Below, piece after piece: positions 4,615-53,863 of a stretch of DNA of 64,000 bases; position 1 is the stretch's first letter, and each line of letters begins with the position of its first letter. The notes beneath the pieces are model-generated. The model made no database searches. It saw nothing but the letters and a program-made list of their open reading frames with translations, and was not told the origin of the DNA. Made by a program: the position numbers and the translations under genes. The stretch is from an uncultured Gammaproteobacteria bacterium. GTDB lineage: Bacteria > Patescibacteriota > Microgenomatia > Levybacterales > UBA12049. Location: NCBI GenBank assembly GCA_965230895.1, contig OZ246394.1:833955-897954 (forward strand), given 5' to 3'.

Positions 4615-5109
4615 ATGAAACGAAACAAGATCTTACTTACTCTTGGCATTTTCCTCCTCTTTTTCCTCGTTGGTGGAGCAACATTTTATTTCTTCGGGCA
4701 AGATATCATGCAATGGTTTGGACCAAAAGATACCAATGTTCCTGGAGGAGCAATTTCAAAAAACGAACCTTTAAAAAAGTGCATCCCTGGAGATAAAAAT
4801 TGCGAAACAAAGAATGATAAAATCATGGCAAACAGACTTGAAGGCCCTGTGGCGAAATTCGTTTCGCATCAATGCGATGGACCAAGAGGATGTCCATCTC
4901 CGACCGATGAAGAAGAAAAAGTGATCGTAAATGCTATCCGAGCATATGTAAAAGATGATACGTTGGAGCTCATACCGATAAATGGTATCACTCCTACAGG
5001 AATAGCATACTATTGCGCAGCAGATAATCGTTGCTGGAGTTATGATACAAAATCTAAAAAAGTAGAGGCATTAAGTACAGAAACTCTTGCTCCTTCGAAT
5101 ACTCAGTAA
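4615..5109 (+). CDS. hypothetical signal-anchored Cys-rich extracytoplasmic protein
   Basis: N-terminal hydrophobic anchor and 8 Cys in the soluble part. Confidence 0.4.
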   Translation: MKRNKILLTLGIFLLFFLVGGATFYFFGQDIMQWFGPKDTNVPGGAISKNEPLKKCIPGDKNCETKNDKIMANRLEGPVAKFVSHQCDGPRGCPSPTDEEEKVIVNAIRAYVKDDTLELIPINGITPTGIAYYCAADNRCWSYDTKSKKVEALSTETLAPSNTQ

Positions 5110-5119
5110 TCATTCCTCA

Positions 5120-6808
5120 TTATTCTTTTGGAGATTCTACGAGTATATATGCAGATTCTGCATATGGGTAAGATATCACCTTCTCATTTTCAGGTAAGAC
5201 AATATTTCTTGTCGGATAAGAAAACTCTTTCAAAACAGCCTTCCCTGCTGCACTATCTTTATCAGTAACGAATAATGTTTTCTTCGATGTAGGATACTTA
5301 TCCCAATTAATTTTCTCAAATCGATATTTGCCTATCTTTTCAGCTGTTAATAAAAGTCCATCTTCTTTGTAGGAAACATTTTTATGATAGATCTCCGGAT
5401 GAAATTTTGTATAAAACACTAATCCTGTATAGGAGAAATCTGTTTTAGGGTCAATAATAATTGCGTCATATTTGCCTTCGTTTGCAGCCAGATATTTACT
5501 CAACTCTGATTCTTGAGAACGCCATATTTTTGCCTGATTGATAGGGAAAACAAAGAAATATGTCACCATGTATGTTAGCACCGCATATGAAACAACAAAG
5601 ATTGATAATATTTGTAATCCCCGTTTAAAAATCAGCTGCTTAACTTTAGTTATGTATTCCCATGCACTTACTGCACCATATGCGGAAAATACAACAAGAG
5701 GGATAACTTGCAAGAAACTTCTCGTTGGATGTGGTACTTCTTGAGTCATGGCAATTACTGCAACCTCAAGTACAAACCATAGGAAGAAAAAGAGAAGGAA
5801 TTTCTCTCTCCTTTTCCATGCAGTCGCGAATCCGATTACTAACGTTATTAATTCAAATATATAGAAGAGTCCATGACCAGCCACTCCGTTTACAGTCTTT
5901 GGTCCAGCCAAAAAGAAAAAATCAATTGAGAATGAGTGGATGAGATTTTTGCAATATTCCCAGATGACAAGCAAATATGAATTGAAAATAAGTTTGGTGA
6001 AAACCTCAGGCAAAAGTACTAAATAGCTTCGGAATTCCATATGTTGCGTCTTAATGAATGGACCATTAAGGAACAGCCCAGATGTCTGATCAACTGTTTT
6101 AGCCATAGAAAGTGTGGCAATAAGAAAAGGCAGCAATGTGACGAAACTAAGTACTATACCAGTAATCTTTGTTGTCACTGACCATCGCGCTATATCTTTA
6201 TAGTGAATTGCTATTAACAAAAGTACTAAAATTGGTGCCATTAGTCGTGTAACATTGTATGCATAGAGGGATAATCCAAAAGCAAAAATGGATATTATCA
6301 AGAACCATATATTTCCTTTTTTCTTTATAGCTAAAGTAAAAAATAGCGATCCTAATAATGCCAAAGATGTTGCTACATTTACCTCAAATCCAGTCCTCGA
6401 AAAGAAAAACTGCCATGGATTGAAAGCCAAGAATAGAGCAGAAGCAACAGCAAAATCATTCCTTTTGGAAGTAATTTTAACTAAAAAGAATAATGAGATG
6501 ATCGCAATTATTCCAAATAACGCGGATGGTAAACGTACAGCAAAAGGTGTAACTCCAAAAACTTTTTCTGATGCAGCAGTTAGATAGATATAAACAGGCA
6601 ATTTATTATCATTAAAGGATTTAAAATATAAAGGGTACGAAACACTATGTTCATCTTTGCCTGTTTCGAGGATAGAATATGCGTTATACCCAATACCAGA
6701 TTCGTCTTTATTGAGGCCTGCAGGTATTGACCCGAGTTGATAAAAGCGGAGAAATAAACTAACACCAAAGAGGAGAACAATAAAAGCTATAAGAAGTTTT
6801 TTTACCAT
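5120..6808 (-). CDS. GT-C fold membrane glycosyltransferase, GT39/PMT family (4-amino-arabinose/mannosyltransferase-like)
   Basis: RFYQLGSIPAGLNKDESGIGYNAYS…LPVYIYL…FAVRLPSALFG matches the PMT_2/ArnT N-terminal signature. Multiple TM helices and a C-terminal soluble domain. Confidence 0.7.
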   Translation of the reverse strand: MVKKLLIAFIVLLFGVSLFLRFYQLGSIPAGLNKDESGIGYNAYSILETGKDEHSVSYPLYFKSFNDNKLPVYIYLTAASEKVFGVTPFAVRLPSALFGIIAIISLFFLVKITSKRNDFAVASALFLAFNPWQFFFSRTGFEVNVATSLALLGSLFFTLAIKKKGNIWFLIISIFAFGLSLYAYNVTRLMAPILVLLLIAIHYKDIARWSVTTKITGIVLSFVTLLPFLIATLSMAKTVDQTSGLFLNGPFIKTQHMEFRSYLVLLPEVFTKLIFNSYLLVIWEYCKNLIHSFSIDFFFLAGPKTVNGVAGHGLFYIFELITLVIGFATAWKRREKFLLFFFLWFVLEVAVIAMTQEVPHPTRSFLQVIPLVVFSAYGAVSAWEYITKVKQLIFKRGLQILSIFVVSYAVLTYMVTYFFVFPINQAKIWRSQESELSKYLAANEGKYDAIIIDPKTDFSYTGLVFYTKFHPEIYHKNVSYKEDGLLLTAEKIGKYRFEKINWDKYPTSKKTLFVTDKDSAAGKAVLKEFSYPTRNIVLPENEKVISYPYAESAYILVESPKE

Positions 6809-6889
6809 TTCTCTCTCTATTTTAACCCTTTACTACAAAAAACCCAATGATCAATTTTAAGAAACTAATTATACTGCTATACTGTCTGT

Positions 6890-7366
6890 ATGAATTTACA
6901 GAGGTTTCGTGCTCAGAAAATAGCGGTGAAGTATGGATTGATTCTTGGAGTATTAATCATTATTCTCAACGCTATACTGACCTTCATCCAGATGACACCA
7001 GCAGCTCATACTATGCTTAGTTATATCACTGTACCGTTCATCATCTTATTTGCAAGCCTTTCTGCATATCAGAGGATGAGACAAACGGGAAATATAGGTT
7101 ATGCAATTCAAAGTAGTATCCTCACAGTAAGCATCAGCATGCTCCTAGGATTTGGGTCACTGTTTATCCTCACGTTTACCTTCATTGAGACTGTCAAGGC
7201 CAATCCAGTGACACTCCACAATTTCGCAGTAAGTGGAGCTAAAGACTTGGATGTCTATATCAGAGATTCTGTCATAGATGCCACGACAAGGTCTGTGCCG
7301 GTCAGTATCGTTATCGGGATAGTATCAGGGGCTTTGGCAGCAAGTATGGTTAAAAGAAACAAATAG
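6890..7366 (+). CDS. small 4-TM membrane protein, hypothetical
   Basis: Hydrophobic ORF, no motif. Confidence 0.4.
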   Translation: MNLQRFRAQKIAVKYGLILGVLIIILNAILTFIQMTPAAHTMLSYITVPFIILFASLSAYQRMRQTGNIGYAIQSSILTVSISMLLGFGSLFILTFTFIETVKANPVTLHNFAVSGAKDLDVYIRDSVIDATTRSVPVSIVIGIVSGALAASMVKRNK

Positions 7367-7422
7367 CTTATGTATGTTGAAAGCGACTAATTAATTAGAC
7401 TAATATAGAATAGCAATCACTA

Positions 7423-8958
7423 ATGAAATCTCGAACAAATAATATTATCCCATCAAAAAAACACTTCTTAAGAATATCTACGATTAGCATTGCAATTCTT
7501 ATCCCTTCTTTTTTTGCAGTGCTTTCACTCATCGGAGGACATCTTTCTCTTTGGTACGATCCTGCAAGAGATCTTTTGAGTGCATGGAACAACCTCTCAG
7601 ATCCCACATTAATTGGTCCAACTTCAGGAATTCCCGGAATCTTTTATGGTCCATATTGGATATGGTTATTAAGTTTTGGCATGCTTTTTTCTAAAGATCC
7701 AGGCGTCATTGCTTTTATAACTGCTTCGTTACCATACCTTATTCTTTTTCCACTTATTTGGTTCCGGTTCTCAAAAATCTGGGGACTCACGACAGTCGTT
7801 TGTGGATGGTTACTCTTTATGTTGAGTACGGGAGGATCGTATGCAACACAATTATGGAATCCTCATCCTGCCCCATTATTTACGCTCATTGTTGTATACC
7901 TTTTATTTGTTATTAATTTTGATAAAGCATCTAAAATGCAAATCATGCTTGCTGCAGTTGCTGGCTTTTTCTTAGGGCTACTCACAACGTTTCATATATC
8001 TTTTGGTATTGCTCTGATATGTGGGGTACTTATTTTTCTCCTTGCACATGCTGTGCATGGCTTCTTAAAAAGTACTAAGAGAAAGCAATTTGTATTAGCT
8101 CGGGCGACATTGTACGGAGTAGTTGCTCTCGGGTTCCTCACTGCATATATCCCTACACTACTCTTTGAGGTACGTCACGGATTTAACCAGACACAAGTAC
8201 TTCTCAATGCGTTAACAAGTTATGGAGATGTTGTAACGGTAAAGGGACTGAGCAAACCACTTATTTTTCAGGAATTTATAAACTCATTTGCAAAGGTTCT
8301 CCATGTACCAGCAAATATTGCTATTGCGATTATTATCCTTTTACCGGCGACGTATATTGTCATGATGAAGCGAGGTATGATTACTATGACACAAGCAGAT
8401 CGTCGCATCCTCATGCTTTTACTTTCGCTTTTAGGTGGTATTCTCCTCATTTACTTTACCGCTCGCAATCCAGTATGGACGTATCACTTTATTGGTGTTG
8501 AGCTAATTCTCTTATTATTAGCTATATTCTTTATTAGCAAAATTTCCTTTTATAAAATAGCTTTGGTTGCATGGACTGTAGTTATAACATTTATGAGCTT
8601 ATCTACCCAAATAACAATGATCAATGCCAAACAGGATACCGGATTCAATGAGCAGAAGAATATTGTTAAAACGGTTGTTGCTGACGCAAAGGGAGATCAG
8701 TATGGAGTTCTTGCGTACAGTGCTTCTATCTATATGTACGATTACAGTTATCTTTTTCAATGGCTTGCAAACAAAGATGTGCCGTATGACCCATCTGCAA
8801 ATAAGGAGGTAGAGACGATATATCTCATTGTCCCAAATGAACGAGATGCAAAGGTGAGTGATTTTATAAATTATCGTACGCCATCTGCCATGTACGTAAC
8901 AGAAAGAACCTGGAAATTTCAATATAATACTGTCTTAAAAAGAGTAAAAGTAGAGTAG
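7423..8958 (+). CDS. polytopic membrane protein, putative GT-C-type glycosyltransferase (paralog of the 1..561 fragment)
   Basis: About 12 TM helices and a C-terminal soluble domain. The first loop has WYDPARD, and the C-terminus resembles that of ORF 1..561. Confidence 0.45.
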   Translation: MKSRTNNIIPSKKHFLRISTISIAILIPSFFAVLSLIGGHLSLWYDPARDLLSAWNNLSDPTLIGPTSGIPGIFYGPYWIWLLSFGMLFSKDPGVIAFITASLPYLILFPLIWFRFSKIWGLTTVVCGWLLFMLSTGGSYATQLWNPHPAPLFTLIVVYLLFVINFDKASKMQIMLAAVAGFFLGLLTTFHISFGIALICGVLIFLLAHAVHGFLKSTKRKQFVLARATLYGVVALGFLTAYIPTLLFEVRHGFNQTQVLLNALTSYGDVVTVKGLSKPLIFQEFINSFAKVLHVPANIAIAIIILLPATYIVMMKRGMITMTQADRRILMLLLSLLGGILLIYFTARNPVWTYHFIGVELILLLLAIFFISKISFYKIALVAWTVVITFMSLSTQITMINAKQDTGFNEQKNIVKTVVADAKGDQYGVLAYSASIYMYDYSYLFQWLANKDVPYDPSANKEVETIYLIVPNERDAKVSDFINYRTPSAMYVTERTWKFQYNTVLKRVKVE

Positions 8959-9087
8959 CATTTAAAAAATTGGACGCTCCTTTATTGGACATATGTCTGT
9001 TTTAAAGAGGCCTTATATCTTTAGTCAATTACACAATGAGCAGGATTAATCCATATGGAGCGTGACAATCAGGTTGTATATCAACTG

Positions 9088-9555
9088 TTAATATTGAATT
9101 TTTTTAAGCCTATCATTGTCAGGAAAAATATAAATAGATATTATCTTTAAATCTCCATCCTCTTCTATATATACCGCTTCTATCCTCCCTGTTGTTCCAT
9201 CTTCATATCGCACAATACCATTGTAATTTGAGGTTGTCGGTCCTCCAATATTTGTCATAAATCGTACATTATATAATTCAACTTCTGAGATATCACTGAA
9301 AAAAAGTTTGGAGTTTACAAATGTTTCTTTAAACTTTTCGTAAGAGATTTGGTTTTGAACCTCTTGTGACATGAAATCATACGCATATTCATATTGTCCA
9401 GCGTCTGTCTTCAACAAAAAGGCATTTGTGATCATTTCAGCTTTATATTTACTAGCTTCTACTTTTTCTGTTAAAAAGCTCGTGGTTATAAAACCTGCTA
9501 TTATTAATACAAAAATTGAAATGAGTGCCCCTTTTAGTATTATGTATTTTTTCAT
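9088..9555 (-). CDS. hypothetical N-terminally anchored extracytoplasmic protein
   Basis: Single N-terminal TM followed by a β-rich soluble domain. Confidence 0.4.
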   Translation of the reverse strand: MKKYIILKGALISIFVLIIAGFITTSFLTEKVEASKYKAEMITNAFLLKTDAGQYEYAYDFMSQEVQNQISYEKFKETFVNSKLFFSDISEVELYNVRFMTNIGGPTTSNYNGIVRYEDGTTGRIEAVYIEEDGDLKIISIYIFPDNDRLKKIQY

Positions 9556-9588
9556 AAGAAGATCTATGCAATTGGGTTCGGTAAGGTC

Positions 9589-10188
9589 TTAAATTTTAAT
9601 CGGCTTTAGGCCTCCATACACAACGTATAATGCAATTCCCCAGATAAATAATCCAATTGGAGAGATTGCGTATTGGAAAAATCCTATAGCTGCTGCTATT
9701 AAACTTGAAATCAGAATAATAAGTTCATCGTCCTTAGGATAGTCTATGAGCATTTGTTCGTGAATATAATGTACGCCTAAGAAATAGTTCGCACCAACGA
9801 TAGCAAGCAATGTAAGAATCATTCCAGTAATTTGTAGTGATGTAGTTGTTCTATTACCTGAACCCATTAAGATAGCTTTAATAACAAGATATCCAATAGC
9901 GATAGCCACAAGTCCGATTTCATAACCGGTAAAAAGAGCGATAAAGTACCAAGCAAGACCGCCCAAAGTCGCAGCTACAAAACCATAGAAAAATGCTTTT
10001 GCGGTGTTGAGTGATTTACTTTCTGCTTCTATTGTTGCAGCAAGCTGTACCTTACAGTTGGCACACATGTTGTAGTCAGAACCATCATTTGCTTGGTAAG
10101 TATGTTGTTTTCCAGCAGGAATACGCTTACCGCAGTTGTTGCAGGTAAGTTTTGTTTTCGTTTTTGAACCAATAGTTAATTTACTCAT
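9589..10188 (-). CDS. zinc-ribbon-containing membrane protein
   Basis: N-terminal CNNCGKR…CANCK zinc-ribbon followed by 4 TM helices. Confidence 0.45.
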   Translation of the reverse strand: MSKLTIGSKTKTKLTCNNCGKRIPAGKQHTYQANDGSDYNMCANCKVQLAATIEAESKSLNTAKAFFYGFVAATLGGLAWYFIALFTGYEIGLVAIAIGYLVIKAILMGSGNRTTTSLQITGMILTLLAIVGANYFLGVHYIHEQMLIDYPKDDELIILISSLIAAAIGFFQYAISPIGLFIWGIALYVVYGGLKPIKI

Positions 10189-10214
10189 AGTAATTTAATA
10201 TAGGATATTATATC

Positions 10215-11087
10215 TTATAGTTTTATTTGTGTCAATACTTTAATTCTCTCTTCAATGGGAGGATGTGTTGATAAAATGCGCTCGACGAAGTCTTTGGATT
10301 TAAAAGGGTTAGAAAAATATAAATGAGCTGTGGAATGAGATGCATTTGGTAACGGCAACTGATCACGACTAATCTTATCTAATGCAGAAATAAGGTGTTT
10401 TGATCGACCTACCATACGAGCTCCTAATGCATCTGCTGCATATTCTCTCTTTCTGGAAACAGCAAGCTTAACAAGTGAAGCACTAATTGGAGCAATCAAG
10501 GCAAATACCATTCCTACCATAGCCATGGCTCCAGATCGATCCTGATCTGCTGCGGTATTAACAATTGATGCTCTCCAATACATATCTGCAATTATTGAAA
10601 TAATACCCGCTAGCGCAGTTGCAATGGCAAGGATCTTCATATCTGAATTCTTAATATGAGCGATTTCGTGAGCAATAACACTTTCAACTTCTTTCTCAGT
10701 TAGCTTTTCAATAAGTCCTCGAGTGACAACGACTGAAGCATGTTTTTCATCTCTACCTGTAGCAAAAGCATTCATAGCATCCTCGTCTATATAATAAATT
10801 TTAGGCATGGCGAGATTATTCGTTTTACAAAGGTTTCCTACTATTTTATAAATTTCTGGTGCTTGTCTCTTGGAAATACTGATAGCCCGTGTTGAAGCAA
10901 TTACGAGCTTGTCAGAGTAATAATATGCTATTAAATTAATTACAGCAGCAATAAGTAAAAAGATACCTGTTCCAGAAAGACCTAAGTTAAAATTACTCGA
11001 AATAATATACCCGAGGATACCTACAGCTGCAGTGAGAGCAGCCATATATAGGTATGAACGAAGAAAATCTATTGAAACAATTTTCAT
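10215..11087 (-). CDS. htpX: zinc metalloprotease HtpX (peptidase M48)
   Basis: HEIAHIKNSDM HExxH motif, two N-terminal TM helices and M48 architecture. The start is taken at MKIV (ATG 11085-11087) rather than the ORF-track start at 11123. Confidence 0.8.
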   Translation of the reverse strand: MKIVSIDFLRSYLYMAALTAAVGILGYIISSNFNLGLSGTGIFLLIAAVINLIAYYYSDKLVIASTRAISISKRQAPEIYKIVGNLCKTNNLAMPKIYYIDEDAMNAFATGRDEKHASVVVTRGLIEKLTEKEVESVIAHEIAHIKNSDMKILAIATALAGIISIIADMYWRASIVNTAADQDRSGAMAMVGMVFALIAPISASLVKLAVSRKREYAADALGARMVGRSKHLISALDKISRDQLPLPNASHSTAHLYFSNPFKSKDFVERILSTHPPIEERIKVLTQIKL

Positions 11088-11094
11088 GTTTGGG

Positions 11095-11123
11095 ACTATA
11101 GCATAACAATAAGAGCATGTCAA
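11095..11123 (-). promoter_or_regulatory. sigma70-like promoter (TTGACA-17-TATAGT) placing the htpX ATG ~7 nt after the -10, i.e. a likely leaderless mRNA
   Basis: Minus-strand TTGACAtgctcttattgttatgcTATAGT lies immediately upstream of the MKIV start. Confidence 0.4.
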
Positions 11124-11254
11124 CTATAGGTCTTTTTGGCAAATTTGATTTTAACACCTTTCCCGGAGGGTGCCTTGTGCCTGCACCTTCAGCCTAGCTT
11201 TTGAAGTGACTCACATGCAGGCTTGGTTCACGCGGAGCGTGGCAATTAAAACAT

Positions 11255-11671
11255 CTATTCACTTAAGAAGTAGAAATCTAATTTTAAACTTGCATTAAGA
11301 CTAGTAATATCTTTTAAGATTTTTTTATCCAAATTAATATATGGATCAAAGTCCGTATAAAGAAGAGTTGACCGAAATTGAGTGTTATATTTTTGAGTTA
11401 ACTCCTGCAGACTATTCTTATGTGATAAGAGTTTAATAAGTAAATGCTCCAAATGATTTTCTATTGGTTCATTTGCATCAAGCTCAGAACTCAAAATCCA
11501 TACATTTTCTTTTATTTTTATTTCAGCTTGAGTTTTCCCTTTTGGCCCTGATCTTTTCAAATCACCTTTTATCCAAGTCTCTGTAGGTTCAATTCCTATT
11601 TTATTTGATATTTCTTGTGGAGAAAAATTGAAACCATATATCTCAAAACTTACTTTCGTATCATTTTTCAT
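11255..11671 (-). CDS. small cytoplasmic protein directly downstream of the RHS toxin gene, a candidate cognate immunity protein (DUF4279-like pattern)
   Basis: Position and orientation are typical of toxin-immunity pairs. VSFEIYGFNFSPQEISNKIGIEPTE…LDFYF resembles DUF4279-type small proteins as I recall them. Confidence 0.4.
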   Translation of the reverse strand: MKNDTKVSFEIYGFNFSPQEISNKIGIEPTETWIKGDLKRSGPKGKTQAEIKIKENVWILSSELDANEPIENHLEHLLIKLLSHKNSLQELTQKYNTQFRSTLLYTDFDPYINLDKKILKDITSLNASLKLDFYFLSE

Positions 11672-11693
11672 ACAATAATTATAACATAAATTT

Positions 11694-14600
11694 CTAAAGG
11701 TTCTTAATATTTATGTTTAATTGATCGGGTTCACCCTTACCGCTTAGTGGTTTTAGGAAGAGTTCTCCAGTATCATCTTTATATATATCTACACCAGATT
11801 GTTGACCTTTAAGATCGTGGATATCAAAGCCTGCTTTCTTTAGCATTTCTATTTCTCCTGAGTTTAATCTCTTCATTTGTGCAGATGCGTTAATTGCATC
11901 AGTTGCATTAAGAATTTTTCCTGCTTTAATTCCTTTTGCTGCAAGTTTAACTTCGCCAAATATAAAGCTTGCACCAATATCAAAACCCGCACCTCCTTTG
12001 TCAGCTAAACTTGAATTTGGATTTCTTAGAGTATTAACAGCTTCTCTATATAATGAGTTATATATTGCTGTAGCTTGTGGTTTTAATACATCCCTTCCTC
12101 CACTCGTATCTTTCTGAGGCTGATTGTTACCTGCACCTGTATTGTAAACGCTATTGTTAATGGAACCATTTTGAATAGATTTTGTCACAACCACATAATT
12201 ATAATAAGTTGCTGTAGTAGGCTTTTGATAATACGCATTCAAAGCTTGATTATATTTAAGAATTTCGTTCACATGTCCAGACGGATCAGTGTACTTAACA
12301 GGATTATTTTGGACATAGGAATAACTATTTAACGTTTGTGGCTCATATACGTTTTTTACAACAAGATCTGGTTGCGTAAACCTCCTCATGTCTGAACTAT
12401 AGTATCGGGCATTATAATAATTCAGTCCTGTCTCACTATCCTTCTCCTGTCCTGTATATTGGAACTTACTCTTCCCTCCACCAGACTTCACCACACCCCA
12501 AGGATCATATGAAGTTTCTTCAGACACAGATCCTCCAGAGTTAGTTAACAAACTCGCAGATCCGAGATGGTCATTTTGATAGTAGAACCTGTTACCACTG
12601 TTATCTCTCTTTGAAAGAAGCTCTCCATTGACCCAGTAATATGCAGTATTCTGTGCAGAACCTCCTACTGGAGTCTTGGTCTCATATCCATCACTCCATG
12701 AGACCACAGTATTTGCGAGAGTCCCAGTGACATAATTCTTCTTCACCATACGGAGACCGTTGTAGTCATAGACATACTCAGCAATAGTATGACTGTTCCC
12801 ACACTCTTTAACTTTAGACAACTGATTTGCTTCATTATATTCATAACATTTCGTCCCATCAGACGTTAAATTCCCATTCGCATCATACGCATATACTGGA
12901 TGCCAGACATTGAAATTATCAAATATTGCTGATGTTGTAGAGGCTTCAGAACTCCATGTACCTACTTGCTGACCGACAATCATCGATGACACAGGGAAAG
13001 GATTGGCGACAGATGCGAAATTACTCCATGTTCCACCATCAGCTGAAGTATCAAAGTACGTCGTACCAGCTGATTCACGTATGCGGAACCATTTATGGAC
13101 AGCTGGATTATAATCATCCTGTGCCAACCAATTAGATGTGCCATTTACTTTTTTGTACGCTCGGATCTTATTTTCTCCGATAAAGAAGAAGAATTGGTTG
13201 GAATTATCTCCATCGACAATGGTGTAGAGTGGGAAGACTTCCCATGAACCTAATGATTGATTCCCAGCATTCACTACCTGCGTAACCACTGAAGAGTTCG
13301 TAAGGTTGTATGCATTACTACTATCAATGCCATAATATCCACCACCTGCGTTACTTGTCGCTGTGAATTGCTGTGCAGAAACAGTCGCGTTGCTTCCACC
13401 CCAGTTCACCCATCTTCCACTATCTATACTTCCCGTACTCCAGTCGTCTACCAAAGTAGCAGTCGGTGCACTCGCATAATTGAAATTATCAAATGTTGCA
13501 CTTGTCGTGGATCCTTCGCTACTCCATGTACCGACTTCTGAACCGATAACCATTTCTGTCACAGCAAATGGATTTGCAACTGATGCAAAATTTGTCCATG
13601 TCGTGCCATTTGCTGAAGTATCAAAATACGTTGTGCCACCAGATTCTCGGATACGGAACCATTTGTGGACTGCAGGATTGTAGTCATCTTGAGCAAGCCA
13701 ATTAGAAGCACCATTTACTTTCTTGTATGCACGAAGCTTGCCCTCTCCGATAAAGAAGAAGAATTGGTTGGAGCTATCGCCATCAATATATGCATATATC
13801 GGATAGACTTCCCAGGATCCGATGCTTTGATTGCCTGCATTGACGACCTCATTGACGATTGAAGAACTCGTCAGATCATACAACTTACCATTTACATCAC
13901 TATCAACTCCATAATATCCACCGCCTGTTGTACTTGTCATTGCAAGTTGATTGCTAGAGACTGTGACTTGTCCACCACCCCAAATATTCCACTTCGTACT
14001 ATTAATAGTCCCAGATGACCACGTGTCAAAAAGTGATGATGTCAAAGGTGTACCAGATCCATTTACATGAGGAGGAGCTACTTTCTCAGTTGACGAAGTC
14101 ATCGCATGGACTTTGCCGTTGGCACCATATCCATAATCAGTATCTACTCCACTATCAGTGAATTTAGTCAGATTACCAATGGAGCTATACTGATATGCAT
14201 AATTGTATCCTGCGGATTCTGAAGCAGTTTTTAGTCGATCAAGATCATCATAGGTAAATGTCTGCGTTTTACTATCTACTGCATCTGTAATACTTGCAAC
14301 GTTACCCACATTATCATAGGCATAGTTCAAGTCTTGCAGACTGCTTGTCTGAATTCTATTTAATCGGAAGTCATTGGTATTGTATGTATAATTCGTCGTT
14401 AATCCATTGTTGAAATTCTTCTGTGTAATCTTCCCCAACGCATTGTAATTCACATTGCTGACGACATTACTGACCGATTCAATCTCTCCCTGATTATTGT
14501 ACGTATTGGTAATAACTTCACTGTCAGGATTTGTTTGTGTTCTGACTCGATCCATCGGATCATACGCAAATTGTGTCGTCTTGGTGACACCACCGACAGT

Positions 14601-17600
14601 TCTGGCTTCCGCAGTTTTGCGAAGAAGATTGTCATAGGTGTAGGAAACACTTCCCGCAGCATCAGTCACACTCGTTAATGTCCCTTTCCTGCTATTCCCA
14701 TCATAGGTGTAGACGACATCAGTATTTGTAGGATAATCTGTCTTCTTGAGTCGATTAATCTCATCATAGGTCTTTACAACTTGCACATCTCTGTTGTCGG
14801 TTTGTTTTGTGAGATTGCCCACTGCGTCATATTCATATTCCCACGTTCCCATGTCAGGATCAGTCATAGATGTTTTACGACCCAAAGCATCATAGGTAAA
14901 AGTAATATCATTGTCTTCATCGTCTGTAATTTGCATTAATAAATCTCGTGAATCATATGCATATGTTGTTTCATATGTTGCTGCGTCATTTACTTCCTCA
15001 ACTTTGACAATCTTATCGAATGCATTTTTATATTCTTTCTTTACGTTACCATTTTCATCAGTTGTTGTTTCTTTCCAGTGGTCATAGGCAATTGTTTTAT
15101 TGTCACCTTTTGGATTGGTAATTGTTACAGGTCTTCCAATTGCATCATATGTTGTTTGTGTATTTCGGATACCACTTAATGGATTTCGATAATAATCATA
15201 GCTATCATCTTCATGTGGAACAGTCACTTTATTGACTTGCCCAGTCGAATCATAATAGGTATTTGTCACGATTTGTTTTGCTGAGGATGTAGCTTCTGCT
15301 TCTGTTCGTGTCGAAATAGTTCGTCCCAGTCCGTCGATCCATGTATATGTATCAAGCGTTGCAGAGGAAGAACCAGTATTTTCTTTCTTTGAAACAAGTG
15401 TCCCATCTACTCCAGCGGTGTAATAGGTGTATTTTGTTGTTGGATAGGTACTGTTATCACCTGGTTTTATCTCTTTGGTAAGCCTTCCATAGACATCATA
15501 TTCATAATCTGTGGTATTACCATTTGGATCAGTTTTGTAGAGAAGATTTCCGGTTCCCAAATCATAATGGACATAGGTTTCATGGTCTTTAGCGTTCATG
15601 CTAAAAGTAGGATATGTTCCTGTCGTATCATAATTTGTGTATGTATAATGTCCATTCGCGTCCTCAACTTCTGTCTGATTTCCAAAAGAATCGTACGTGT
15701 AATTTGTCGTCGGATCGGTCGTAAACAAACCATCAGTCCACTTTACTTCTTTGGTCAAATTACCTTTTGATGGAGCATCACCTAATCCAGAATGTGAATC
15801 ATAATAGAATGAAGTTTCACTTATTTTTGTCGAATCATTTGATGCTTTGAGTGTCGTCTTTTTGGCTGTATTGACGATCCAATCAGTTGTATTGTACGTA
15901 TATTCATTATATGTATAACGCTCGTCCCCACTAACTCCTGTGTCTCCCAATTCAGATTTCTTTGTCACGTTGCCATAACTATCATATTCAAAGTTTGTTT
16001 GCTTTATCTTTGGATTACTAGCTGAGCCATCATAGGTTAAGATTTTCTCTTCTGTTTGTTTCGTCACGGTTACACCATTTGTCGTTGTATAACTCCATGT
16101 TGGCTGCGTCTCACGATATGGATTGTTTGAGCTATCACGTTCTTGCAGCTCACTCAACTTCCCTGTAAGCGTTTCATATTGATGGAAGACATATTTTTTC
16201 TTTGATCCATTTGGCTCAACTGTATTGACGATAGAAAATCCCTGGAACTGTTTAAGATTATGGTCATAAAATCCATCTTGATAACTATATGTTGTGACAT
16301 CATTTGTTTCTTGATCATTGTCCAAACCGTTATTGACAGTCATTTTAGAAACAACCCATACAGGGAAAGAGAGATCAGATTTACTGTCACTACCCGTATT
16401 GTCATAAATTGTTGATGGCTTATATTCAAAATTAACTACTCCGCCTCTATCTGTTGTTACTTGTTTAAGAAGATGAGGAGCATTTCCGTTATTTTTATAA
16501 ACCTTCCATGATGAAAAATCTCCCTTCACAATATCAGGGAGCCCATCACCAGTAACATCAGTCAATTTTGTTTTATTATCATTAGCATTTATATCAACAT
16601 TTGCAGAATACTCTATCCAATTGTCCCATTGATCTGTCCAATGATCGCCCCTACTGACGAGAACCTTCCATCTATCAGCTCCACCTGGATCCTGATTTTC
16701 GTTCCTGACAATATCAATAAGCCCATCCCCATTAGCGTCAGATATTGTCGATTGAGGCTCTTGGAAATGTGCATTGACGGAATAATCAAGCCATATTGTA
16801 AAGCCCCTGAACCCGCTACCAGTATTGAGCCAAACATACCACGTAGCCCAATTGCCATCGTAAACAGTACGGACAACATCTGATATACCATCATTATTTA
16901 CATCAATCAAACGTACTTGAGGACTTCCAAGTCCTGCTGGCATATTTGTTCCATCAACCCAAACATCACGAGTAGTACTCCAACCTGATCCAGTATTTTT
17001 AAATACTTCCCACTGATAACCTCCGTTATTTGCTTTTGTATGGACGATATCAGGAAGTCCATCTCCGGTCATATCAGCTAAAGTGACATCATTCTCTCGA
17101 AGTTTTATAGATCCATCAACACCACTAAGATTCGTCCAATTTTCAGCTGTAGTATTCCAACTAGTACCAGTATTCCTAAATACTTGCCATACATCTGCAT
17201 CAGGAGAACGAACAATATCCGGTAAATTGTCCCCTGTTACATCAATCAATCGTACATACGGAGTGAATTGTGGATCCAGTCCAGCATTTATACCAGCATT
17301 AGTCACCCAATTTGTCCATTGAGTTGGCCATGAGGTTCCCGTATTTATTAAGACTTTCCATGTAAAGTTAATACCTCCATTAAAATCTGTTCCAACCACA
17401 TCCATATAACCATCACCATTTACATCTGACAAAGTGACATTATCTTGCCCTAAATTAAGATTTATATCTTGATTAATCCATGTCTCAGGCGTGGCATTCC
17501 AGCTTCGAGGCTCATTATTATATTCGAAAGAGGTGGTTAAGTAATTAGATCTATCATCGCCTTTCTCAATTATAGAAGTTAAAAGTGGTTGATTACTGAA

Positions 17601-18491
17601 AGTCGGTGTGTAATTCAAATCATACTCTCTGACAAGATCCTCTCCTATGTATACTTCTATATTGTCAAGATTATTGGGATCAAACATGTAACAACCTTGA
17701 ACGAACACTGGACGTGTATAGCCATGTGCAGGGTTGGAACTTCCACTATCTACATAATGAAATTTGATAATACGGGATTGATCGTTGTTATATTTGATTC
17801 TTTCCAGATAGGACCACCCATACGTCTCACCATATGTATAATAAATCTTATTACTATTGGTATCTGTCACAAGGTCGAGATTCCACATGGTAACAAAATC
17901 ACGATCATTACATTCTCGTTCTGATTGCGATTCATAACCGAAACGGTACTTCGTCCCATCTGGTGTGGTCACAACCCAATACTCACCTTTGACATTAGAC
18001 CCCCCAGTAAGCTTTTGAATTTTCAAATAAGATTCTATCTTTGTATGGTACAAACCGTCTGAAGATACATACACAAGTTCATATACCGCACCTTTGAAAT
18101 ATAATTTAAATTTATCATCGCTTGTATTGGTCGGAGTTCCGTTAACGTCACGCTGAATATACTGCTGGTTTAGAAGCCATCCAATACCAGAGTTCATTTT
18201 CATATCCCTCAAACCTGTACTACTATAATTTATTGAAACTTCAGGTGTTAGATCATTGGTACCTTTTGGAACTTTTATTGGATAAGAATAATTCGCAGAA
18301 CCAGTAAAGATATCAGTCGTAAATCTATCACGTTGATATTTTGGTTCTGTAGTATTTTGGATAGAATAATCAGCAAGTATATCACCGCCCCCAGAAAAGA
18401 GAAGAGCAAAAGAACCAAGGAAACCTAAAGCTAACTTTAATTTAAACGAATGCATATGGTAGTAGGGACAGCTACTATCGATACTCAACAC
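11694..18491 (-). CDS. secreted RHS/YD-repeat polymorphic toxin, TcB/TcC-fusion-like, with SpvB-type N-domain, FG-GAP-like repeats, YD shell, RHS core and a variable C-terminal toxin domain
   Basis: Signal peptide, with the probable ATG start at 18455. SpvB-like GSANYSYPIKVPKG…INYSS…GIGWLL, then six or more DxxGDGxxDxV repeats. Dozens of YD repeats follow (YTYDALGRKT, YEYDAVGNLT…). The core ends in NPVKYTDPSGH (~12273), followed by an unassigned ~190-aa tail. Confidence 0.85.
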   Translation of the reverse strand: MLSIDSSCPYYHMHSFKLKLALGFLGSFALLFSGGGDILADYSIQNTTEPKYQRDRFTTDIFTGSANYSYPIKVPKGTNDLTPEVSINYSSTGLRDMKMNSGIGWLLNQQYIQRDVNGTPTNTSDDKFKLYFKGAVYELVYVSSDGLYHTKIESYLKIQKLTGGSNVKGEYWVVTTPDGTKYRFGYESQSERECNDRDFVTMWNLDLVTDTNSNKIYYTYGETYGWSYLERIKYNNDQSRIIKFHYVDSGSSNPAHGYTRPVFVQGCYMFDPNNLDNIEVYIGEDLVREYDLNYTPTFSNQPLLTSIIEKGDDRSNYLTTSFEYNNEPRSWNATPETWINQDINLNLGQDNVTLSDVNGDGYMDVVGTDFNGGINFTWKVLINTGTSWPTQWTNWVTNAGINAGLDPQFTPYVRLIDVTGDNLPDIVRSPDADVWQVFRNTGTSWNTTAENWTNLSGVDGSIKLRENDVTLADMTGDGLPDIVHTKANNGGYQWEVFKNTGSGWSTTRDVWVDGTNMPAGLGSPQVRLIDVNNDGISDVVRTVYDGNWATWYVWLNTGSGFRGFTIWLDYSVNAHFQEPQSTISDANGDGLIDIVRNENQDPGGADRWKVLVSRGDHWTDQWDNWIEYSANVDINANDNKTKLTDVTGDGLPDIVKGDFSSWKVYKNNGNAPHLLKQVTTDRGGVVNFEYKPSTIYDNTGSDSKSDLSFPVWVVSKMTVNNGLDNDQETNDVTTYSYQDGFYDHNLKQFQGFSIVNTVEPNGSKKKYVFHQYETLTGKLSELQERDSSNNPYRETQPTWSYTTTNGVTVTKQTEEKILTYDGSASNPKIKQTNFEYDSYGNVTKKSELGDTGVSGDERYTYNEYTYNTTDWIVNTAKKTTLKASNDSTKISETSFYYDSHSGLGDAPSKGNLTKEVKWTDGLFTTDPTTNYTYDSFGNQTEVEDANGHYTYTNYDTTGTYPTFSMNAKDHETYVHYDLGTGNLLYKTDPNGNTTDYEYDVYGRLTKEIKPGDNSTYPTTKYTYYTAGVDGTLVSKKENTGSSSATLDTYTWIDGLGRTISTRTEAEATSSAKQIVTNTYYDSTGQVNKVTVPHEDDSYDYYRNPLSGIRNTQTTYDAIGRPVTITNPKGDNKTIAYDHWKETTTDENGNVKKEYKNAFDKIVKVEEVNDAATYETTYAYDSRDLLMQITDDEDNDITFTYDALGRKTSMTDPDMGTWEYEYDAVGNLTKQTDNRDVQVVKTYDEINRLKKTDYPTNTDVVYTYDGNSRKGTLTSVTDAAGSVSYTYDNLLRKTAEARTVGGVTKTTQFAYDPMDRVRTQTNPDSEVITNTYNNQGEIESVSNVVSNVNYNALGKITQKNFNNGLTTNYTYNTNDFRLNRIQTSSLQDLNYAYDNVGNVASITDAVDSKTQTFTYDDLDRLKTASESAGYNYAYQYSSIGNLTKFTDSGVDTDYGYGANGKVHAMTSSTEKVAPPHVNGSGTPLTSSLFDTWSSGTINSTKWNIWGGGQVTVSSNQLAMTSTTGGGYYGVDSDVNGKLYDLTSSSIVNEVVNAGNQSIGSWEVYPIYAYIDGDSSNQFFFFIGEGKLRAYKKVNGASNWLAQDDYNPAVHKWFRIRESGGTTYFDTSANGTTWTNFASVANPFAVTEMVIGSEVGTWSSEGSTTSATFDNFNYASAPTATLVDDWSTGSIDSGRWVNWGGSNATVSAQQFTATSNAGGGYYGIDSSNAYNLTNSSVVTQVVNAGNQSLGSWEVFPLYTIVDGDNSNQFFFFIGENKIRAYKKVNGTSNWLAQDDYNPAVHKWFRIRESAGTTYFDTSADGGTWSNFASVANPFPVSSMIVGQQVGTWSSEASTTSAIFDNFNVWHPVYAYDANGNLTSDGTKCYEYNEANQLSKVKECGNSHTIAEYVYDYNGLRMVKKNYVTGTLANTVVSWSDGYETKTPVGGSAQNTAYYWVNGELLSKRDNSGNRFYYQNDHLGSASLLTNSGGSVSEETSYDPWGVVKSGGGKSKFQYTGQEKDSETGLNYYNARYYSSDMRRFTQPDLVVKNVYEPQTLNSYSYVQNNPVKYTDPSGHVNEILKYNQALNAYYQKPTTATYYNYVVVTKSIQNGSINNSVYNTGAGNNQPQKDTSGGRDVLKPQATAIYNSLYREAVNTLRNPNSSLADKGGAGFDIGASFIFGEVKLAAKGIKAGKILNATDAINASAQMKRLNSGEIEMLKKAGFDIHDLKGQQSGVDIYKDDTGELFLKPLSGKGEPDQLNINIKNL
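12910..14065 (-). repeat. tandem in-frame duplication (2 x ~570 bp) inside the RHS gene, encoding two ~190-aa β-sandwich/lectin-like modules
   Basis: ccgataaagaagaagaattggttgga occurs at 13177 and again at 13747. The protein copies SGTINSTKWNIWGGG…FFFFIGEGKLRAYKKVNG…TFDNFN and SGSIDSGRWVNWGGS…FFFFIGENKIRAYKKVNG…IFDNFN are ~70% identical. Confidence 0.8.
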
Positions 18492-25459: not shown

Positions 25460-25486
25460 TAAACACTTCGAATGGTATAATAAGGT

Positions 25487-53821: not shown

Positions 53822-53863
53822 ATAAAAAGTATAGCAAAAATAAGGTAAAACGAACTGATCTAT

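Follow-up and report, generated by a model that had tools for sequence, protein, structure and literature searches.

The pairing of the Ntox33 toxin domain with DUF4279 proteins has already been predicted in the literature. In Salmonella, the PAAR-Rhs-Ntox33 protein CFSAN070114_4426 of SPI-19 and the DUF4279 protein CFSAN070114_4425 were predicted in silico to form an effector/immunity pair (PMC13304343, 2026). DUF4279 corresponds to the immunity family FdL-Imm5, which is composed of a single ferredoxin-like (FdL) domain and a C-terminal extension, and Ntox33 is found among the toxins that are coupled to FdL immunity families (Li et al. 2022, PMC9424270). The available text of that study does not state explicitly which FdL family is paired with Ntox33. 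CdiI of Burkholderia pseudomallei 1026b (PDB 4G6V chain B) was grouped with DUF4279 in the same study as a single-domain ferredoxin-like immunity protein. Ntox33 itself was defined by the motifs [DN]xHxxK and DxxxD, and no immunity partner was given for it (Zhang et al. 2012, PMC3482391). A review of July 2026 lists the domain as 'novel fold, activity unknown' and adds no validation reference. A search of the literature returned no experimental report of Ntox33 toxicity or of DUF4279 neutralisation.

The window described here, i.e. the whole 64-kb stretch of DNA that was analysed, belongs to a member of the Levybacteria (Patescibacteria, candidate phyla radiation). Its Lon protease is 98% identical to that of one MAG (CAZDOJ010000001.1) and 73-90% identical to those of dozens of further MAGs, many of which carry the label Candidatus Levybacteria or Levyibacteriota. 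The window encodes a large RHS protein with an Ntox33 tip, and the next gene on the same strand is a 138-aa open reading frame (ORF) of the DUF4279 family that very probably encodes the cognate immunity protein of the Ntox33 domain. As in Salmonella SPI-19, an Rhs protein with an Ntox33 tip and a DUF4279 protein thus follow each other in a two-gene unit. The carriers differ, however. The Salmonella protein (1369 aa) is a type VI effector with a PAAR domain, whereas the RHS protein of the window carries a Sec signal peptide, FG-GAP repeats and TcdB_toxin_midN but no PAAR domain. The two DUF4279 proteins are only distantly related in sequence, and the nearest relatives of the window protein outside its own lineage are approximately 40-45% identical. 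The FdL-Imm5 members of Li et al. resemble the window gene in Pfam family, fold architecture and a position directly after a polymorphic toxin, but their carriers are Sec-exported BetaH/S8-peptidase toxins of Gram-positives, in contrast to a 2253-aa RHS protein in Levybacteria. Only the Levybacteria host and the Sec-exported, TcB-like RHS carrier are unusual at the present locus. The genome spends approximately 7 kb on a secreted RHS weapon and an antidote with a probable promoter of its own, which bears on competition among bacteria with small genomes. Several MAG records whose Lon protein is 72-98% identical to that of the window are titled 'uncultured Gammaproteobacteria bacterium' and are probably mislabelled.

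A further system with a similar layout is the WapA/WapI pair of Bacillus subtilis, a wall-associated, Sec-exported RHS toxin and its downstream immunity gene, reportedly described by Koskiniemi et al. in 2013. Like the window protein, WapA is an RHS protein with a signal peptide, belongs to a cell that has no outer-membrane secretion machine and carries a polymorphic tip after the motif of the RHS core, with the immunity gene located directly downstream.

The WapA tips differ from Ntox33 in being tRNases, and the WapI proteins are unrelated to DUF4279.

The RHS toxin gene and the adjacent DUF4279 gene

An overview of the locus is given in Table 1. The reading frame of the toxin gene extends to a GTG codon at 18491 (11694..18491, 2265 aa) and is closed by a TAG stop codon at 11696-11694. 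The protein (N-terminus MHSFKLKLALGFLGSFALLFSGGGDILA) has a Sec-type signal peptide and, according to the Pfam scan, FG-GAP repeats, TcdB_toxin_midN, RHS repeats (11 stretches), an RHS core and the Ntox33 tip, and no PAAR domain was detected in it. The Ntox33 profile matches the very C-terminus (E 1e-15, 58.4 bits vs. a threshold of 28.4). DIHDLK and DIYKD in the tip fit the two defining motifs of the domain, and the invariant residues H, D, K, S, D, K, D and G are all kept in an alignment with Ntox33 domains of other loci. The stretch that separates the repeat region from the C-terminal core contains two tandem repeats of approximately 190 aa with 71% mutual identity (RHS aa 1487-1865; 12876-14033, minus strand). 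Both are shared with the orthologue of the sister strain L008, have no significant Pfam match and may be lectin-like insertions.

Table 1 Features of the RHS toxin locus. Positions are those of the window
Feature	Position	Strand	Description and basis
RHS/YD polymorphic toxin gene	11694..18455	minus	2253 aa from ATG 18455 (gene call on identical metagenome contigs); Pfam
DPSGH motif	12273..12287	minus	aa 2069-2073; end of the conserved RHS core and boundary of the exchangeable C-terminal tip; comparison with L008
Ntox33 toxin domain	11703..11882	minus	aa 2204-2263; motif DIHDLKG...DIYKDD; PF15533
Extended -10-like box TGTTATAAT	11678..11686	minus	6 nt before the immunity ATG, inside the 22-nt spacer (11672-11693); promoter scan
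DUF4279 (FdL-Imm5) ORF, immunity gene candidate	11255..11671	minus	138 aa, stop codon included in the positions; ORF list and PF14106
G+C-rich patch	11147..11252		106 nt, up to 60% GC, between the immunity stop codon and the htpX promoter; GC scan
Motif CACGCTCCGCGTG...CCTGC	11241..11217	minus	inside the G+C-rich patch
Promoter-like site TTGACA-17-TATAGT (TG) for htpX	11095..11123	minus	near-consensus; consensus match only
htpX-like M48 peptidase gene	10215..11087	minus	next gene after DUF4279; Pfam
Examples of TGnTAnnnT before start codons	11678-11686 (-), 11095-11103 (-), 6875-6883 (+), 25473-25481 (+), 53828-53836 (-)		

The original prediction, made from the sequence of the window, had placed a cytoplasmic 138-aa ORF with a resemblance to DUF4279 proteins immediately behind the toxin stop codon and on the same strand. 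All of this is borne out, cytoplasmic location being itself a prediction. The ORF and the RHS gene share the minus strand, which had been left unstated, and the start codon, ATG 11671, begins with the 23rd base past the toxin stop. This ATG is the first start codon of the stop-to-stop frame 11258..11710. The protein reads MKNDTKVSFEIYGFNFSPQEISNKIGIEPTE...LDFYFLSE, the same peptide that had been quoted. DUF4279 is its sole Pfam match and scores 78.5 bits, the gathering threshold being 25 (E 6e-22), covering residues 12-129 and model positions 1-114 of 116. The protein has no hydrophobic segment (maximal Kyte-Doolittle mean over 19 residues 0.71) and a pI of 5.95, and is therefore predicted to be cytoplasmic. 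A profile built from 72 relatives matches only this ORF in the window (E 4.5e-51), and a six-frame profile search of the 64 kb yielded exactly one DUF4279 and one Ntox33.

An AlphaFold2 model based on the alignment of 72 sequences (pLDDT 96.4, pTM 0.89) has the topology beta-alpha-(beta meander)-alpha-alpha-beta-alpha-beta. As modelled, the protein is a single ferredoxin-like domain with a C-terminal extension, in agreement with FdL-Imm5 of Li et al. 2022. A Foldseek comparison of the model with the PDB gave no match at E <= 1e-3, no relative with a solved structure came up in sequence and profile searches of the PDB, and NCBIfam lacks a model for it. The family has many, highly diverged members, which form 751 clusters at 50% identity (E <= 1e-3). 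A single-protein locus search of GTDB species representatives found no locus with the DUF4279 protein.

The identical 138-aa sequence is present on seven independent metagenome contigs with the gene order kept, and also on a 1.61-Mb NCBI contig. Relative to the 87% identical orthologue of strain L008, dN/dS is 0.18 at a dS of 0.35, which identifies the ORF as a genuine coding gene. That it is not a functional gene has next to no probability. Its small size and the absent Shine-Dalgarno motif are all that speaks for such a reading, and the missing motif is the rule in this genome; the strong HMM match, the confident fold, the substitution pattern and the recurrence on independent contigs stand against it. 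The G+C content falls from 39% in the remaining RHS gene to 35% in the toxin tip and 28.3% in the immunity gene (window 37.4%), a gradient that is consistent with an exchanged cassette.

Linkage of Ntox33 and DUF4279 in other genomes

The genomic context of DUF4279 was looked up for five distant homologues. Four of them (26-45% identical to the window protein) are linked to Ntox33, and in each of these the Ntox33 protein is encoded directly upstream with a gap of 1-3 nt or an overlap of 4 nt. The upstream gene encodes a 1792-aa RHS-Ntox33 protein for homologue P0160 (3-nt gap), a 385-aa non-RHS Ntox33 protein for P0175 from a Verrucomicrobium MAG (3-nt gap, 6/6 contigs) and an RHS-Ntox33 protein of 862-889 aa for P0189 from an Opitutaceae MAG (4-nt overlap). 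For P0152, the closest homologue outside the lineage (45% identical), it is a cut ORF with an Ntox33 C-terminus (E 1e-16, 1-nt gap). The fifth homologue, from a Gemmataceae MAG, is preceded by an ORF of 69 aa in which Ntox33 is not recognisable.

Three plasmid-borne homologues were found by tblastn. In Aureibacter, DUF4279 is preceded by an orphan RHS-core fragment, and a polymorphic toxin type 47 gene is part of the same island. Those on a Niallia megaplasmid, adjoining dltBCD, and on a Pontibacter plasmid, adjoining an IS110 transposase gene, have no recognisable toxin neighbour. Both the Gemmataceae 69-aa ORF and the orphan RHS tail of Aureibacter were considered as Ntox33 relatives and dismissed, the profile matches (E 0.02-0.03) being too weak. 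In two of the MAGs (Verrucomicrobium, L013 5485-8420; Gemmataceae, L111 4531-6465), DUF4279 and its small upstream partner are located just 3' of an iron-containing alcohol dehydrogenase gene.

Homologs that occur without any link to toxin genes had been named in the original prediction as evidence that would speak against an immunity gene. Among distant family members this is partly the case, since the DUF4279 genes of Niallia, Pontibacter and the Gemmataceae MAG lack a recognisable toxin neighbour. This is expected of orphan immunity genes; because of these three, toxin linkage cannot be taken as proven for the entire family.

In the opposite direction, five Ntox33 proteins were picked solely because they are located on long contigs. 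In four of these contexts (Nocardia rhizosphaerae, a Saccharibacteria genome and two MAGs) the next gene is DUF4279, the closest spacing being an overlap of 4 nt and the widest a gap of 16 nt. The downstream gene of the fifth encodes a 183-aa protein that aligns to the DUF4279 profile in hhalign (85% probability, E 6.7e-6) and is a probable divergent DUF4279. The Ntox33-DUF4279 pairing is thereby supported by genomic contexts from both sides and independently of the earlier predictions. The immunity-gene assignment of the original prediction is upheld by the position of the ORF, its DUF4279 family and the adjacency of Ntox33 and DUF4279 across phyla and scaffolds, whichever of the two served as the starting point of the search.

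Candidatus Saccharibacteria (L103; CP065016.1, 209770-218135), another genome of the candidate phyla radiation, has a series of small genes on one strand. It includes an Imm33-like gene as well as a 121-aa Ntox33 protein followed by DUF4279. The histidine motif of this Ntox33 protein reads SPEQLK instead of D.HDLK, and the toxin may accordingly have lost its activity.

The Ntox33 carriers of the linked pairs vary and comprise RHS proteins of several sizes, non-RHS proteins and short proteins. The linkage of DUF4279 hence tracks the Ntox33 toxin domain and not the N-terminal delivery scaffold. This is the pattern that marks immunity genes, and it speaks against a secretion adaptor. A role of the DUF4279 protein as a toxin accessory (chaperone, stabiliser or export adaptor) instead of an inhibitor would have precedents, since some small genes of RHS and T6SS loci do encode adaptors. 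However, the Eag/DUF1795 and DUF4123 adaptors are directed at the N-terminal delivery part, and their genes are usually found upstream, whereas DUF4279 follows Ntox33 across unrelated scaffolds, including proteins of 79-191 aa without any delivery part. It also persists past the replacement of a toxin tip (see below). Furthermore, four tandem DUF4279 repeats each are present in two proteins (556 and 575 aa), an architecture that suits poly-immunity and not chaperoning. An accessory function is thus very unlikely.

The short forms raise another reading, in which Ntox33 and DUF4279 constitute an intracellular toxin-antitoxin or abortive-infection module that was captured by an RHS gene. Many Ntox33 proteins are short (79-240 aa), have no recognisable export domain and are directly followed by DUF4279, so that they resemble two-gene toxin-antitoxin modules. 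On the other hand, short forms are typical of orphan tips, and many of them stem from cut contigs. In most type II systems, the antitoxin has a DNA-binding domain and is usually encoded upstream of an intracellular toxin. At the present locus, the antidote gene is located downstream of the toxin, its product has no Pfam domain besides DUF4279 and hence none for DNA binding, and the toxin domain is the tip of an RHS protein with a signal peptide. No match to the anti-phage defence models of PADLOC was obtained. A captured module of this kind is most improbable.

For the favoured pairing of toxin and immunity protein, the divergence of toxin cores and immunity proteins was compared over nine pairs. 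The two are correlated (Mantel r 0.58, p 0.011), with a value that is inflated by shared ancestry and depends partly on a single cluster of three pairs. Divergence is faster in the immunity proteins, with identities of 17-27% as compared to 36-50% for the toxin cores.

Replacement of the toxin tip in sister strain L008

The sister strain L008 offers a natural comparison for tip replacement. Up to DPSGH (aa 2069), which fits the DPxGx motif at the end of RHS cores, the RHS proteins of the window and of L008 share 75% identity; past this motif the figure is 15%. No Pfam family matches the L008 tip, which comprises approximately 170 aa. A 122-aa DUF6984 gene overlaps its end and is presumably the tip's own immunity gene, and the two likely form an uncharacterised toxin-immunity pair (L008 6300-7390). 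Located 125 nt past DUF6984 is the intact orthologue of the window's DUF4279 gene. DNA homology to the window resumes at the 22-nt spacer in front of DUF4279, and no Ntox33 remnant is left in the L008 locus. In view of its low dN/dS, the L008 gene is interpreted as an orphan immunity gene that is still under selection after its toxin tip had been replaced.

The flanks of the two loci differ as well. In L008 (7933-8533), the gene directly behind DUF4279 is convergent and homologous to window gene 4615-5109. The two are separated in the window by approximately 6 kb (5110-11254) with htpX and five other genes. The closely related strains differ here by a rearrangement or indel beside the toxin locus.

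The L008 arrangement could also be read to mean that DUF4279 serves the cell in a way that has nothing to do with the toxin and follows the RHS gene only incidentally, or that the window gene is a remaining orphan without a match in the present tip. The L008 orthologue sits behind a non-Ntox33 toxin and a DUF6984 gene, and the toxin-less genes of the Niallia megaplasmid, the Pontibacter plasmid and the Gemmataceae MAG would be in line with this. However, the present tip of the window is Ntox33, i.e. the partner found in 4/5 DUF4279-seeded and 4-5/5 Ntox33-seeded contexts, the spacing of the pairs is tight (4-nt overlap to 22 nt), and the L008 arrangement is what tip replacement predicts. Taken together, an unrelated role or a mismatched orphan is unlikely.

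According to the preferred model of a cognate pair, the RHS protein would be exported by Sec, and its RHS shell would enclose a tip of approximately 190 aa that reaches from behind DPSGH to the 65-aa Ntox33 domain at the end. The small, acidic, cytoplasmic DUF4279 protein would bind the Ntox33 domain one-to-one and block this domain in the producing cell as well as in siblings to which the toxin is delivered. Tip and immunity gene would represent an exchangeable cassette, and expression of the immunity gene, as a leaderless mRNA from a promoter of its own with an extended -10 box, would not depend on transcription of the toxin gene. Physical binding of DUF4279 to Ntox33, neutralisation and use of this promoter are features that we infer from the sequence comparisons.

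Transcription signals of the probable immunity gene and the downstream region

A promoter scan in front of the immunity gene identified the candidate TTAAGA-18-TATAAT with TG, of which L008 keeps the -10 box as TGATATGAT. Start codons throughout the window were inspected for similar signals. A Shine-Dalgarno-like motif is found at only one of the 43 presumed genes. A TAnnnT hexamer that ends 4-11 nt before the start codon is present at 25/43 genes (random rate 0.17), and the extended -10 form TGnTAnnnT occurs 5-7 nt before the start, nearly always at 6 nt, in eight of them (random rate 0.014). Both the immunity gene and htpX are among these eight. This pattern suggests that leaderless transcripts are common in this genome. 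The immunity gene would probably have its own promoter in the region of the toxin stop codon and the spacer and give rise to a leaderless mRNA. Such independent transcription is considered at least as likely as co-transcription with the toxin. With an extended -10 box of its own, the gene is probably expressed without depending on read-through from the toxin gene, which makes biological sense for an antidote.

The original prediction had regarded the small gene as the end of the toxin transcription unit, with htpX following under its own promoter. The former is not established, in view of the extended -10 box of the immunity gene. The separate status of htpX is supported by the near-consensus site upstream of it, as a consensus match, and by L008, in which htpX does not follow DUF4279.

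The spacer between the immunity gene and the htpX promoter contains a G+C-rich patch (Table 1). A structured RNA gene was considered as an explanation and rejected: no tRNA was found and no Rfam family matched at the gathering or at a permissive threshold, which also holds for tRNAs and Rfam families in the entire 64-kb window, and the folding energies are no better than those of shuffled sequences on either strand. A likeness of the patch to the L008 spacer upstream of DUF4279 comes down to a short shared motif. In the window, the motif CACGCTCCnnnTGn(4-9)CCTGC closely follows the stop codons of two genes on the minus strand, at 11217-11241 (-) and 9040-9064 (-), and also after DUF4279 in L008 (7994-8018, +). 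For a looser form of it, 0.07 chance occurrences are expected in the window. The patch with its motif may represent a lineage-specific 3'-end or terminator element.
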